A stretch of 64,000 nt of DNA, taken from Alphaproteobacteria bacterium (lineage in GTDB: Bacteria > Pseudomonadota > Alphaproteobacteria > RF32 > CAG-239). Of this stretch, positions 11,333 to 25,056 are shown piece after piece. The notes beneath the pieces were generated by a model. That model was not told the origin of the DNA. It saw only the letters and a program-made list of their open reading frames with translations, and ran no database searches. Each line of letters starts with the position of its first letter. Position 1 is the first letter of the stretch. Made by a program: the position numbers and the translations under genes. The stretch lies in contig JAZKXV010000012.1 of NCBI GenBank assembly GCA_045611785.1, positions 82,916 to 146,915 on the forward strand, written 5' to 3'.

Positions 11333-11443
11333 TTTTTTCTCTTAATAAATTCCAATAACGAAATTGATTTTAATCTGTTTTTTTTATTTTCGCAACCAAG
11401 AGTTTAGTTTATAAAGATAATTTTTAAGCAGCCACCTTTATGG

Positions 11444-11472
11444 TTGACAAAAACAATATTTTGCTCTATTCT
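11444..11472 (+). promoter_or_regulatory. Candidate sigma70-type promoter for the 11513 ORF.
   Basis: TTGACA (11444-11449), 17 nt spacer, TATTCT (11467-11472), about 40 nt upstream of the ATG. Confidence 0.35.
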
Positions 11473-11512
11473 GCTAACATAAAGAAATTTTTATAAATTA
11501 AACCCAATTTTT

Positions 11513-12127
11513 ATGACACTAGAAAAATATTATTTAAAAGCACATTCGAACGAGAACTGTCGAAACGTGGTGACAGCTGAAGAATTTGGCAACTTGCAGG
11601 CTTCAATAATTGAGTTCTTTCAAGGTTTTGAAAAAGCAAAAAAAGAAGATTGCAAAAACGAAAATTGTGAAGCATTACGCCTAACTAAAAACGCCTATGC
11701 AACCAATGCGTACCTATCTGAAAACAGAACATCTCTACAGGGACTTGCTCTTTACTTACTTGATTTTCGTGGAGCAAATGACGTCTTTTTCAAAAAAGAA
11801 AAAATTGACCTGTACGGATTAATGTATATGATTTTTACGTACAACTACATGTTTCAAGAAGCGGACTTCCGACTTCTCGAACTAACGAAAACTAAATCGT
11901 TTGCCCTTCAAATGCCTGAAAAAGACAATGTGACACTCTTCATCATCAAACACTTTAATGAATTCAGTCCGTTCGAACTCAACACCATTTTCCGAAGGCT
12001 CAACAGAATGAAAAAACGCCTTAAAAAAAGCCCGTACAAGTTAGAAAATTATACTTATCAGTATATACTTTACAACATGATATCGCGCAAACTGCCTTTT
12101 TTCCGGCGTTTATGCTTAAGGAAATAA
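11513..12127 (+). CDS. Hypothetical protein, 204 aa, with basic C-terminal tail. Compositionally distinct (higher GC).
   Basis: ORF flanked by its own promoter-like site and a strong terminator. Codon usage is richer in G/C-ending codons than neighbours. I recognise no motif. Confidence 0.5.
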   Translation: MTLEKYYLKAHSNENCRNVVTAEEFGNLQASIIEFFQGFEKAKKEDCKNENCEALRLTKNAYATNAYLSENRTSLQGLALYLLDFRGANDVFFKKEKIDLYGLMYMIFTYNYMFQEADFRLLELTKTKSFALQMPEKDNVTLFIIKHFNEFSPFELNTIFRRLNRMKKRLKKSPYKLENYTYQYILYNMISRKLPFFRRLCLRK

Positions 12128-12134
12128 TCTTTCA

Positions 12135-12161
12135 AGAGGAGCAAAGCTCCTCTTTTTTTTA
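12135..12161 (+). terminator. Rho-independent terminator.
   Basis: aagaggagc-aaa-gctcctctt hairpin followed by a T8 run. Confidence 0.7.
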
Positions 12162-12241
12162 TAAAAAATTTGAAAAAAACTTGATTTTGTCACAGTTATA
12201 TGTCATGATAAAATTAATTAAGCTATAAGTGGATATAACTT

Positions 12242-15200
12242 ATGATATATGAAGAAGAAAAAATTAGATCTATAAAAGCAAATATTGATGAATATTCAAA
12301 AAGGACTCTTGCTTTATCATCTTTTAGTGCTAAAGATGAAGCTGAATTTCATAAATATATACAACAAATTTGCCAACGCTTGCTTGGAGATAGTATTGAT
12401 TTAAGCCAAGAACCAATAATATTTGCTCTTTCTGATAAAAAGCAAGAAAATGCGGCTTTCGCTCACAAAGAAGGTGCTTATCAAATTATTTTTATTACAG
12501 AAAGTCTGCTTAATTTATGCGAAAACGAAGATCAATTAGCTTTTATATTAGCTCATGAACTAGGTCATTTTGAAGAAAACAAACGTCAAGGTAAACATAG
12601 AAATTCTAAAGCCGAAGAAACTGCTGCAGATTTAAGAGCTATTCAAAAAATGGCTCAAGCAGGATATAATTTGGAAGAAGCTCATAAAATAGCAGTAAAA
12701 ATTTTCGATTCTTATTACATTAACATTGAAAGTTTGAAAGATGATCATGTTAATGATAAAACTCGTGTTAATGCAATTGATGCAATGATAATTGCCACAA
12801 AGCAACGTATCATTGAAAGTACAAACGCTTCATTTATTGAAACGACATCACCGATTGATGAGCACATAAAAGACATGGTTGCATCTCGCTCTAAAATAAG
12901 TTTGTTATCAGAAAGGTTACGTACCGATATAGCTGTAGCTCTGGATACCAAAACAGCATCACAAATATGGATAAATGCATTTCATGAAGCCTTATGTGAC
13001 ACTAACGGCACACTAAGAATTACCGATGACGACACTTATGCGTTACACTGGTCTATATACGATATATGCAGAAAAGATAAAAATCAAGCTGATGTTTTTT
13101 TAGCATCCATATTAGTACACTTTGATCAAATCAAAAATGATCCTAACTATAACCAAATAAAAGAACTTATGAGTGAAGTATTACACAAAGTTTACTCATA
13201 CGATGCAAGCATTGTCAGCCTTAATGCTGACAATGAAGATAGTCAAACTGCTGCAATTTTAAGGCATTATTTAAAAGGTTTTCGTGAAGCAAGTGGCGAT
13301 AATTTTGATAAAATGATGCAAAATTTTGAACATATAAGACCTTTGGTTGCAAAAGTATGGGGCGACGGATATAAGGGAGTATTTGTTAAAAACTTTAATT
13401 TATTAGAACTTGATTTTAATGAAACTGATATCGGAAAACATTTTTCTCCGGAAATTATAAACTATATCAAGCGAAACCTTAATGCTAAGGATCAATTTGA
13501 AACCATTAGTGGCCTAACCTTTAATATTGCTGGTGATAACTTAATTATAAAAAATGAAAAATTATCAGTTTGTACAATTGTAAATCGTGATGGCAATGTT
13601 TGCGCATCTCTTCCGCTTGAAAAACTTGATAATTTATACAATTCACTGATAGCAGATACAATTACAAATTCTTATCATGATATTTTAGATATAAAAAACA
13701 ACAAAAGTTTATCTGATGCTGAAAAATTTAATAAATTAAAAAGCGTATTTAATATTCTTGAACCTCAACCAACGATAAATAATATAAATAACATATTAAA
13801 AATAAGAAACAGTAAAGACAAAATCGACATTTCATTAAGCGGTGTTGTCGAGCTTTTAGATGATGATGTAAAAGCTTTTTTTGCTGAAAGAAGTGCGAGA
13901 CCATATAATATTGAACAATCTCCATATATGAGCTTTATTGTTGACAATATGGCTGATTATATAAGAAAGGCTCAGCCCGAAGAATTTAGTAATATTCTCA
14001 ATTACCTTACTTTTGACATCCGTTGCAACGAAGAAAAACTTTGGACATCTTTTTTTGAAAACAAAGAGTTTTTCTCAATTTTACAGCAACAATTTTCTCA
14101 AATAAATTTAACTCCATCTTCTGAAGATGACTGGTCTATAATTAATACTTTATTTAATCCGAATTTTGACCAGAATATTTCAACAATTTCAAACATGCTA
14201 ATCAGATTGCATGACATATCTGATAAAAAACTTTTAGAACATATATCAAGCGGAAAAGATTTAAACTCTTTTGAAGCACCTTTTACTAAACAAATTGGAG
14301 AATTATGCGGGTTCAGCAACGGTAAATTTTCTAAACAAGAACTTGAAGACAGCATCAATCAAACCCGAAACATAAATCATTTTCAACCATCACCTCTACA
14401 AGAAGCATACGCATTATATTATTCATACGATGCATTAAAAGATGATGCTCAAATTGATCTTAGCAAAACAGGTGGAACAAATTGCGCCGGAACAAAAATT
14501 GGTAGCACTATTAGCCATATCAATGCTTATTTAGAAGAACCTGAAGAGTATTCCATTGATGAAGCAGAAGCTGAACTGTTAAAAAAACAAAAAGATACAT
14601 ACAAAAACGCTTATGATGTTATCAAACAAAAGTTAGTTAACCAAATTAATGATGAAAAAAATTGGTCTACTTATAATGGGAACTCAATTTTTGATAATAT
14701 AAGATTTTTAAATGACAGTGGTTTTCATACCATAATTAAACGCGAAGACTTTTTAGAAGCATGTTTAAAATTATATCCGAACGATAAAGATAGAATAAAT
14801 TGTATTCAGAGTTTACAGAACATTGTAAATTATAGTGATTCAAGCGTAAAAAACGATGCAATGAAAGAAAAAATTTTCCCTGTAATTTCATCTATTTTTA
14901 ACGATGGCAGTTCTGACGTACATAATATGATTCAGACTTTTCACCATTTATCCAAATACGATCTTTTTAAAAGCGACAATATCGATTACTATAATATCCT
15001 TACAGGCACAGATGGAAAATCAGGCTTATTAGAACAAATAAGTCATGAACCCGCTAGCATACAAGAAAATTGTTATGAAATATTGTTAAATAAAGAAGCT
15101 CGTATACCGGATCCTGAAATTAGAGCAGAAATAATTAAAAGGTATGCACAAGCATGGCATAAAAATCATGCTTATTACAACGATATTACAGCTACTCCAG

Positions 15201-24179: not shown

Positions 24180-24299
24180 ATACAAAATTATTTTAGTTTT
24201 AATTTTGAACGATATCAATGATAACATTCTCTGATATTGTTAATTTTAAACATAATATTGATTGCAATATCAGACATTTTTTTACAAATGGAGAAAAAA

Positions 24300-24794
24300 A
24301 TGAAATTGTACCATTATGCCCCAAAAGAAAATTCTATAATGACTGATGGTCTATTATCTATTTCAAAGGTTGATCGAAATTTGAAACCATATGCTCATCG
24401 TGCCGGTTCCGAAAATAAAGAAGATATATTAAAGTGGATGGATAACACATTTTATGGGCGCTCAAGGGCTGTTTCTTGTTTGACAGAGCAGATAAAATGG
24501 AAAGGCAATGACCCTATATTAAAAAAGATTGTTGATGGTACCGTATTATTTTCATTTGAACTGAATGAATTAATAAAAGATGGTTTGGTAGAATCAATAT
24601 GGTGCAAAAATGGTTCTGATGCTGGTGGATATAATGAAAAATTTTATCAAGTGACACCTGATAAAATTGATTTATCATATCTTACTTGGGAAAAAGTAGA
24701 TGCATCAAAAGATTTGCTCTATGCAGTAATAAGGCACTATATGGTTGTTCTTAAAGACGGAGTTATTCCTGCAAAATACATTATAAAAGAGTGA
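24300..24794 (+). CDS. Hypothetical small protein (165 aa from MKLYHY; the ORF track begins at 24237).
   Basis: GGAG at 24290-24293 is 6 nt upstream of the ATG at 24300. The upstream part of the tracked ORF overlaps a palindromic intergenic site. No motif recognised. Confidence 0.45.
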   Translation: MKLYHYAPKENSIMTDGLLSISKVDRNLKPYAHRAGSENKEDILKWMDNTFYGRSRAVSCLTEQIKWKGNDPILKKIVDGTVLFSFELNELIKDGLVESIWCKNGSDAGGYNEKFYQVTPDKIDLSYLTWEKVDASKDLLYAVIRHYMVVLKDGVIPAKYIIKE

Positions 24795-24801
24795 ATTTAC
24801 C

Positions 24802-24840
24802 CCAAAAAATAAGATAGTATGTGTGCTAACATACTATCTT
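24802..24840 (-). terminator. Rho-independent terminator for tRNA-Pro (minus strand).
   Basis: Perfect 12-bp inverted repeat aagatagtatgt/acatactatctt (24811-24840) with a 6-nt loop. The A-run 24803-24809 on the plus strand gives a U-run after the hairpin on the minus strand. Confidence 0.6.
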
Positions 24841-24846
24841 ATGTAC

Positions 24847-24923
24847 TGGTCGGGACGAGAGGATTTGAACCTCCGGCTTCTTGCACCCCATGCAAGCGCT
24901 CTACCAGGCTGAACTACGTCCCG
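24847..24923 (-). tRNA. tRNA-Pro (anticodon GGG), 77 nt including 3' CCA.
   Basis: The reverse complement folds as a cloverleaf. Acceptor CGGGACG/CGTCCCG, D-arm GTTC..GAGC, anticodon stem CTTGC/GCAAG with loop AUGGGGU (anticodon GGG), T-arm GGAGG-TTCAAAT-CCTCT, encoded CCA. GC-rich island in AT-rich DNA. Confidence 0.85.
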
Positions 24924-25056
24924 CTCATATTTAACCTCTATATACTCTCATTTTATAAATTGCAAGAAAAATATAAATATTATATTAATAATCTAAATTA
25001 AAGCTTGCAACTTTAATTCATATATCTAAAATCCTTTAAAAAGGAGACAAAATAAC

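Follow-up and report, generated by a model that had tools for sequence, protein, structure and literature searches.

Probable native gene turnover beside tRNA-Pro in an alphaproteobacterial chromosome that carries a giant M48/UbiB-like gene

A stretch of 64,000 nucleotides (nt) from an Alphaproteobacteria bacterium (lineage RF32, CAG-239; assembly GCA_045611785.1, contig JAZKXV010000012.1, positions 82,916 to 146,915 of the forward strand) was analysed and is referred to here as the window. The interval under study was 11333-25056, which encloses a candidate accessory island of about 13.5 kb (11400-24925) that ends at a tRNA-Pro gene and had been proposed from the letters alone (hereafter the original prediction). 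Open reading frames (ORFs) were annotated with Pfam and NCBIfam, families of mobility, defence and phage genes were sought with Pfam, NCBIfam, PHROGs and PADLOC, and tRNAs were located with ARAGORN and Rfam. The GC content of the window was about 32-35%. The source is an uncultured alphaproteobacterium of the gut, met in metagenome-assembled genomes from humans, ruminants and other animals.

The interval contained eight ORFs and tRNA-Pro(GGG), and their positions are given in Table 1. The tRNA gene was the only one found in the window by ARAGORN and Rfam, and its 3' end points left into the interval. A large proportion (94%) of the interval was coding, with about 0.8 of the 13.5 kb being intergenic. 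Pfam matches were obtained only for the giant protein and the 311-amino-acid (aa) and 309-aa proteins, and the remaining five of the eight ORFs produced no match. The genes listed in the original prediction were all present, as was the minus-strand tRNA-Pro(GGG). The M48 part of the predicted protease-kinase fusion was recognised by Pfam, and its kinase part proved real but atypical, being of the UbiB/ABC1 type. The APH-like kinase matched PF01636 above the cut-off, the divergently oriented sugar dehydratase and membrane protein both lay on the minus strand with a PF02719 match and hydrophobic segments, respectively, and the two tandem paralogues were indeed related. The small orphan was also present, with its start most likely at 24300 (164 aa) and not at 24237.

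The left flank (681-11332) was a core block with genes of a MacB/FtsX-type ABC transporter, dnaJ, holB, tmk, dacC, rlpA and mltB, as predicted, and its gene order was kept in many of 80 related genomes. The right flank carried EamA, a pilin-like gene, accB and accC. The core character predicted for this side held for EamA, accB and accC, but the flank was not purely housekeeping, as the pilin-like gene (25475-26086) was missing there in both sister loci described below.

Table 1. Features located in the interval between mltB and EamA (window positions).
Feature	Position	Strand	Basis or remark
204-aa lineage-specific ORF, raised GC at third codon positions	11513-12127	+	No family match
Terminator-like hairpin and T-run after the 204-aa ORF	12134-12154	+	Nine-pair stem with 5 GC pairs, then TTTTTTAT
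Giant protein, 1834 aa, N-terminal M48 and C-terminal UbiB/ABC1-like domain	12242-17746	+	Pfam M48, full-length homologues
M48 peptidase domain, residues ~36-190	12347-12811	+	PF01435, family profile
UbiB/ABC1-like kinase-fold domain, residues 1185-1640	15794-17161	+	PF03109, AlphaFold model
APH-family kinase-like protein, 311 aa	17765-18700	+	PF01636
Direct repeat, copy 1	18695-18740	+	Just past the dehydratase 3' end
Nucleotide-sugar 4,6-dehydratase/epimerase, CapD/PseB/FnlA type, 309 aa	18751-19680	-	PF02719
Polytopic membrane protein, distant MFS-like transporter, 401 aa	19691-20896	-	Hydrophobic segments, distant homologues
Direct repeat, copy 2	20999-21044	+	Upstream of the membrane-protein gene
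Tandem paralogue 1, 450 aa	21135-22487	+	Homologue family without annotation
Tandem paralogue 2, 549 aa	22530-24179	+	55-57% identity to paralogue 1
Small ORF, longest form	24237-24794	+	ORF list; likely start 24300
164-aa protein	24300-24794	+	Start as in conspecific contigs and homologue alignment
Hairpin, 14 bp, between the 164-aa gene and the tRNA	24809-24842	-	
tRNA-Pro(GGG)	24847-24923	-	ARAGORN and Rfam

Gene order was compared in 80 related loci anchored on mltB, in 36 loci anchored on accC and in the loci of homologues of the giant protein (loci carry numbers with the prefix L). The seven genes next to mltB were each found in 45-52 of the 80 loci, and the order of the block was kept in many of them. 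The far side of mltB varied widely among relatives. Locus L002 had genes for a GidA/TrmFO-like protein, a phytoene/squalene-synthase-like protein and a radical-SAM enzyme at this place, in L005 and L007 the place was taken by pyruvate phosphate dikinase together with a 2030-aa giant-gene paralogue, and in L004 the giant gene directly adjoined mltB. Neither accB nor accC was found within 10 kb of mltB in any of the 80 mltB loci, and mltB was not found within 10 kb in any of the 36 accC loci. The mltB and accBC flanks are not neighbours in most of the order.

Two loci shared more of the interval. L171 comes from a sister species with about 79% nucleotide identity over the core block. Its order was mltB, the giant gene (60% amino-acid identity), two tandem homologues of the 164-aa gene (38%, then 86% identity), a YpsA-like gene, a FeFe-hydrogenase gene, LemA, M48, tRNA-Pro(GGG) on the minus strand, EamA, accB and accC, followed by a 243-aa membrane protein gene and an ABC-F gene. 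The tRNA-Pro was 98.8% identical between the window and L171 and occupied the same relative position. The order in L170 was metK, the giant gene (60%), seven other genes including a homologue of the 164-aa gene, tRNA-Val(GAC), EamA, accB and accC, with the tRNA-Val(GAC) standing in the place of the tRNA-Pro of the window and on the opposite strand to it. The nucleotide alignment with L171 stopped at the end of the giant gene (17686) and restarted at 24292, just ahead of the 164-aa gene; the species-specific segment is therefore 17747-24299 (about 6.5 kb). Between the 164-aa gene and the tRNA, L171 had 4.4 kb and the window only a 52-nt hairpin spacer. Thus the flanks were orthologous and their content differed: the giant gene, the 164-aa family and EamA-accBC were common to the window, L171 and L170, each of which carried its own cargo set. 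Syntenic copies in relatives, which the original prediction had named as evidence against an island, were found for the 204-aa ORF, the giant gene, the 164-aa gene and the tRNA-Pro, and not for the APH-like gene, the dehydratase/membrane-protein pair or the two paralogues.

The interval 11333-25056 is probably native, rearrangement-prone chromosome at a synteny breakpoint, with two slots of gene turnover, and not an element integrated at tRNA-Pro. An inherited frame common to at least one sister species consists of mltB, the giant M48/UbiB-like gene, the 164-aa gene, tRNA-Pro and EamA-accB-accC, and the 204-aa ORF belongs to it more loosely. Slot 1 lies between the giant gene and the 164-aa gene and holds the 6.5 kb of 17747-24299 in this species, and slot 2 lies between the 164-aa gene and the tRNA and is empty in this species. 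Slot 1 would have been built piecemeal from the gene pool of the lineage itself, with the APH-like kinase, the MFS-like/dehydratase cassette and two old paralogue copies, and its cargo would have been acquired inside the lineage, by ordinary recombination, relocation and duplication, and not by site-specific integration. All of the families of the slot-1 cargo also occurred in related gut Alphaproteobacteria, and nothing in the cargo points outside the lineage. The predicted single accessory island of about 13 kb was therefore not one element, although its inner 6.5 kb did turn out to be species-specific cargo, made of families native to the lineage.

The signatures of site-specific integration were sought directly. 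The 25-nt 3' end of the tRNA had no second match with three or fewer mismatches in the whole 64 kb, no stretch of 11 nt or more from the tRNA with its 50-nt flanks (24801-24960) was repeated in 11000-24800 on either strand, and no 20-mer of the tRNA was matched in 11000-24800 with four or fewer mismatches on either strand. The direct repeat of the tRNA 3' end that had been suggested for checking was thus absent at every stringency tried. Pfam, NCBIfam, PHROGs and PADLOC showed no integrase, transposase, other recombinase or phage integrase in the interval, so that the statement of the original prediction to this effect was upheld by four libraries of hidden Markov models. PADLOC and PHROGs showed no defence-system or phage family besides one generic sugar epimerase. 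A megablast search of the whole interval against plasmids and phages gave no similarity, protein-pattern scans of viral contigs gave no match to the interval, and a tblastn search of plasmids with the kinase domain gave no match. With 94% of the interval coding and spacers of about 0.8 kb, there is no space for remnants.

An old, degraded integrative island, in which a tyrosine-recombinase element entered at the tRNA-Pro 3' end and has since lost its integrase and attachment (att) sites and taken on the composition of the host, is therefore unlikely. It would account for the abutment of the interval on a tRNA 3' end and for the differing tRNA-adjacent cargo of the window, L171 and L170, and repeated integration can leave scars such as the degenerate tRNA 3' copy and the 64-nt repeat of L171 described below. 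Against this stand the missing att-like repeat in the window and the missing recombinase or remnant in a region that is 94% coding, together with the synonymous-site composition, which was native. Moreover, two frame genes, the giant gene and the 164-aa gene that touches the tRNA, are conserved in the sister species; the L171 repeats are about 0.25 kb each and do not bracket the 4.4-kb cargo of that locus; and this cargo includes ordinary metabolic genes, such as the one for the FeFe hydrogenase, which lies in a core neighbourhood in other genomes. Like tyrosine-integrase islands linked to tRNA genes, the interval is a lineage-specific block at a tRNA 3' end between conserved housekeeping blocks; it differs from them in the lack of an integrase and of a tRNA-derived repeat, in native codon usage, in being partly syntenic in sister species and in having cargo families native to the lineage. 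The original prediction had left open an old, degraded island or a coincidental adjacency to the tRNA, and of these two the evidence favours coincidence.

The tRNA-Pro gene of L171 (L171:20603-21344) was flanked by local duplications that the window did not have. To its left lay a tandem repeat of 229-233 nt. The first copy of this repeat closes with a degenerate version of the tRNA 3' end (80% over 25 nt), and every unit holds an inverted 20-nt T-arm fragment. To the right of the tRNA gene lay an exact 64-nt repeat including the tRNA 5' end. These duplications are recombination scars and do not bracket the L171 cargo.

Composition gave no sign of import either. The median GC at third codon positions (GC3) was 0.221 for the eight interval genes and 0.233 for the other 47 genes of the window (Mann-Whitney p 0.24), and the dinucleotide distance in 5-kb windows was 25-78 inside the interval, against a whole-window mean of 49 (standard deviation 18, maximum 103). 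The overall GC fell to 0.26-0.29 across 18-21.5 kb, with the dehydratase/membrane-protein pair having the lowest GC in the window. Core genes, those of the nusA-infB operon and the one for adenylate kinase (adk), were the strongest compositional outliers of the window. The shifted composition expected of an island was therefore not seen: GC3 and the dinucleotide signature matched the rest of the window, and only codon positions 1 and 2 differed. The GC shift of the 204-aa orphan was real (GC3 0.39 versus about 0.22). Its homologues in four relatives likewise had GC3 above that of the neighbouring mltB, so the shift is a trait of the gene across its family and not a mark of import.

Several points weigh against native turnover. 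The GC at codon positions 1 and 2 was lower in the interval (0.349 versus 0.382, p 0.006), which is a real difference; we attribute this, and the lower overall GC of the interval, to the amino-acid make-up of membrane and fast-evolving proteins and not to import. Any part of the frame was common to only three species, and since the mltB and accBC blocks lay more than 10 kb apart in about 100 other relatives, the frame is young. The comparison revealed no genome in which slot 1 is empty, and gain here or loss elsewhere both fit. The tRNA-adjacent cargo differed in all three species and L171 carried partial duplications of both ends of its tRNA-Pro, so that site-specific events may have taken place at this tRNA in the past. 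An intact empty site was not seen among about 180 loci, and all eight of the conspecific contigs obtained by exact-protein look-up (8/8) had the structure of the window. Metagenome relatives of AccC (83-88% identity) were tried as an empty-site test and rejected as too rearranged; their loci had tRNA-Phe and an inverted EamA upstream of accB, and were without mltB, the giant gene and tRNA-Pro.

Plasticity zones have been described in Chlamydia and Helicobacter. The region studied here resembles them in its conserved flanks, in content that differs between related species, in very large lineage-specific genes and in having no obvious mobility genes; it differs in being small (two slots of 0-6.5 kb) and in having been seen in three species so far. 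An orphan block next to a tRNA between housekeeping blocks resembles an island, yet it can be native chromosome where synteny blocks are short. As an island the finding is ordinary; the giant M48/UbiB-like family and the paralogues without a known fold merit follow-up.

The giant protein scored 53.3 bits for PF01435 (cut-off 20.3) at its N-terminus. In an alignment of 18 homologues, H105, E106 and H109 (the HExxH motif) and E126 were invariant, and the family profile matched PDB 3c37 (M48 peptidase; expectation value (E) 1.5e-11 in two stretches) over residues 35-190, as well as BepA. It thus resembles M48 proteases such as BepA, YcaL/LoiP, HtpX, Ste24 and Oma1 in HExxH with a downstream Glu, in passing the Pfam cut-off and in its profile match to solved structures. 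It differs from them in having no signal peptide, no transmembrane segment and no tetratricopeptide-repeat (TPR) domain, and in the fusion of about 1650 further residues.

With the kinase-like domain (residues 1185-1640) scanned alone, PF03109 (ABC1) scored 24.2 bits against a cut-off of 22.9, and it was not reported in the scan of all 1834 aa. The UbiB equivalog TIGR01982 matched weakly (E 3e-4, 19 bits versus a cut-off of 488), and a PDB profile search with the domain showed no sequence relatives. An AlphaFold model of the domain, built from 11 homologues, had a predicted local distance difference test (pLDDT) of 67 and a predicted template-modelling score (pTM) of 0.68. All 12 of its best Foldseek matches in PDB were of the UbiB family (COQ8A/ADCK3, MSMEG_1954 and Rv3197), with template-modelling scores of only 0.3-0.5. 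Invariant or nearly so in the 18 homologues were K1253-L-A-Q1256, K1325, E1338, D1456/D1458/H1460 and D1477. These we take to be UbiB hallmarks, namely KLAQ as a version of the KxGQ motif, the A/S-rich nucleotide loop, the catalytic loop D-x-D-R-H-G-G-Q and F-D-T-G as a version of DFG; they were assigned to the canonical motifs by eye, and KLAQ has A where KxGQ has G. Known UbiB/ABC1 members are about 400-650 aa long, often with transmembrane helices. The domain is like the UbiB/ABC1 kinases (COQ8A/ADCK3, UbiB, Rv3197/MSMEG_1954) in passing the ABC1 cut-off alone, in its top structural matches and, as assigned by eye, in a KxxQ motif of the N-terminal extension and the other invariant motif residues, and unlike them in lying behind M48 near the C-terminus of a soluble protein of 1.4-2.9 kaa (thousand amino acids), with KLAQ in place of KxGQ. 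No match was obtained for the approximately 1000 residues that separate the two domains or for the final 200 of the protein.

Full-length homologues of the giant protein with 46-64% identity were present in related metagenome-assembled genomes (MAGs). The profile of the kinase-like domain found 1003 proteins at E <=0.001 and 462 at E <=1e-30 among 1.84 billion representatives, which gives a family size of at least 462 clusters at 50% identity. Among the 150 best matches listed, most were 1.4-2.9 kaa long with the kinase-like domain near the C-terminus, and all five of the distant members sampled (5/5) also began with an M48 domain. In the literature, no description of an M48-UbiB fusion architecture was found. 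The giant protein is tentatively regarded as a member of a large undescribed family in which an M48 zinc protease is hard-wired to a UbiB-type kinase/ATPase through about 1000 residues, a suggestion that we rate as possible and no stronger.

Both parent families, UbiB and M48, act on membrane proteins or lipids. The giant protein might accordingly be a quality-control enzyme of the cytoplasm or the membrane surface, in which the UbiB-type ATPase/kinase module would gate or target the M48 zinc metalloprotease. If the two activities were coupled, for example through proteolysis that is gated by ATP or that senses lipids at the membrane surface, the protein would represent a novel type of machine for quality control or signalling. 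A natural fusion with a protease could also hint at what UbiB regulates and offer a bacterial handle on that poorly understood family. The functional model draws on the domain families only. The gene stood in five different neighbourhoods in the species examined, so its context gives no functional clue; no link to ubiquinone was found in these contexts. The family is widespread and unannotated, in gut Alphaproteobacteria and beyond.

Other giant proteins of this kind were also noted. In a distant member, P0135 (2864 aa), the kinase-like region is followed by an additional catalytic domain of the glutamine-synthetase type, so the giant scaffold accepts further enzymatic modules. A second subfamily of the giant M48 protein, of about 2030 aa (L005:227-6349 and L007:663-6746), shares 31-34% identity across the C-terminal half; its genes are near mltB, with pyruvate phosphate dikinase in between. 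The MAG with L007 and L170 (contigs JAZLAM010000020 and JAZLAM010000024) carries both giant subfamilies.

The description of the interval genes as effector-like found no support: no protein except the membrane protein showed a signal peptide or transmembrane segment, and no eukaryote-like or secretion-related domain was found. A co-selected host-interaction locus, in which the giant protease-kinase, the APH-like kinase and the orphans are secreted and act together, is accordingly very unlikely. Most of the genes are lineage-specific and unannotated, as such a locus would have it, and the giant protein joins a protease to a kinase-like domain, a combination known in some secreted toxins and effectors. 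However, recognisable secretion domains were lacking, and the genes were scattered in relatives, with the giant gene in its five neighbourhoods and the paralogue family and the cassette elsewhere. The kinase-like domain was also strongly conserved (63% mean column identity), unlike typical fast-evolving effectors.

The remaining frame and cargo genes were compared with their relatives. Homologues of the 204-aa ORF (37-47% identity) adjoined mltB in L001, L002, L003 and L005, and L171 and L004 had no such ORF between mltB and the giant gene. The terminator-like hairpin and T-run after it suggest that the ORF may be a transcription unit of its own. The 311-aa protein scored 43.4 bits for PF01636 (APH) against a cut-off of 23.2, which identifies the generic APH fold only. 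Among aminoglycoside-resistance models, the best, APH(2''), reached 24-34 bits against cut-offs of 475-625, and the protein could not be assigned as an aminoglycoside-resistance gene, being far below the NCBIfam antimicrobial-resistance cut-offs. A homologue with 37% identity lay at another place in L055, and homologues of the APH-like and 164-aa genes were found at other positions in L055 and L041.

The 164-aa protein was 86% identical to the product of the L171 gene that lies one gene past the giant gene, after the 38%-identical paralogue, and a 32%-identical homologue lay one gene after the giant gene in L170. The family has the invariant motif set MKLYHY...GRSR...E. It had no Pfam match (E up to 10) and no PDB relatives by profile search. 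A reading of the 'LYHY...GRSR...E' pattern as ADP-ribosyltransferase/Tpt1-like was dropped, as Pfam was empty to E 10.

In the minus-strand pair, the 309-aa protein scored 278.6 bits for PF02719. It fell below the equivalog cut-offs (FnlA 281.5 versus 730, PseB 248.9 versus 407.75). The strong Polysacc_synt_2 match and the Rossmann-type N-terminus liken it to the PseB/FnlA/CapD dehydratases, and the sub-cut-off scores and the absence alongside it of the rest of the pseudaminic-acid or FucNAc pathway set it apart from them. The 401-aa membrane protein had about eight or more hydrophobic segments and no Pfam match of its own, and its distant homologues had PF07690 (MFS_1). In L180, a 76%-identical membrane-protein homologue is followed by the same dehydratase, the pair being 76% identical in DNA over 2.1 kb. 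L180 has 31% GC, and the pair lies there in a different neighbourhood that has recJ and a TPR-methyltransferase gene; the L180 contig stops 56 nt past the dehydratase gene. The membrane protein and dehydratase therefore behave as a two-gene cassette that moves as a unit. A role of the pair in the export or modification of a surface sugar is plausible from the families concerned.

The cassette was flanked by a direct repeat of 46 nt with 74% identity, which contains an exact 17-mer, CATCAACAAATAAAATC, at 18721-18737 and 21025-21041. Both copies fall in the short spacers that flank the cassette. Exact repeats of at least 17 nt are expected by chance at about one per 64 kb in Markov simulations, and two other unrelated ones were present in the window. 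The repeat is suggestive of an insertion scar but does not prove one.

The pair is also the starting point for reading the interval mainly as a surface-polysaccharide variable locus, that is, a region of glycan diversity varying between strains. This is highly improbable for the interval as a whole, as it fits only 2.2 of the 13.5 kb. In its favour, the pair combines a CapD/PseB/FnlA-type dehydratase with a membrane protein that resembles a transporter, a 54%-identical homologue of the membrane protein adjoins a Stealth capsule phosphotransferase gene in L181, and the pair has the low GC and the bracketing repeat noted above. Yet no glycosyltransferase, flippase/polymerase or chain-length gene was found in the interval, and the conspecific contigs all carried the same version (8/8).

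The two tandem paralogues belong to a family of 28 homologue clusters, none of which has a family annotation for the shared region, and paralogue 2 has about 100 extra residues after the shared N-terminus. Other Alphaproteobacteria MAGs had a single gene of the family, set in a conserved gene neighbourhood that extends from tig and prfC to def, nusB and nrdR. The AlphaFold model of paralogue 1 was confident (pLDDT 85.7, pTM 0.84) and gave no convincing match among PDB structures, and a PDB profile search with the family likewise showed no sequence relatives. The 450-aa and 549-aa proteins may on this model represent a further new fold, and this confidently modelled 450-aa family without structural relatives is a second pointer from the interval. 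In the family alignment, paralogue 1 shared 63% identity with a protein encoded on another, unplaced metagenome contig and only 57% with its tandem neighbour, so the duplication is old if that contig represents another organism. The first 68 nt of the shared sequence (21153-21220 versus 22545-22612, codons 7-29) were 88% identical, compared with 69% for the best other 300-nt stretch, and the N-terminus that the paralogues share lacked conservation across the family at large. The pattern points to local gene conversion between the two genes at their 5' ends.

Further observations concern the rest of the window. The pilin-like gene 25475-26086 on the minus strand codes for 203 aa with a type IV pilin-like N-terminus, QFGRSMVEMLGVLAIVG, and lies between EamA and accB. 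It was absent between these genes in L170 and L171 and is a second species-specific insertion, just beyond the island boundary as drawn. In 13 of the mltB-anchored loci the family was represented by between one and three genes each, whose positions varied. Two adjoining ORFs of 161 and 172 aa at 52334-53341 on the minus strand had no Pfam match and codon-usage distances of 0.49 and 0.37; they adjoin the nusA-infB operon, and the dinucleotide distance of the window peaks in this part. The adenylate kinase gene (61768-62484, plus strand) had the most deviant codon usage in the window, with GC 0.41, GC3 0.41 and a codon-bias distance of 0.58, and was more deviant than any gene of the candidate island.

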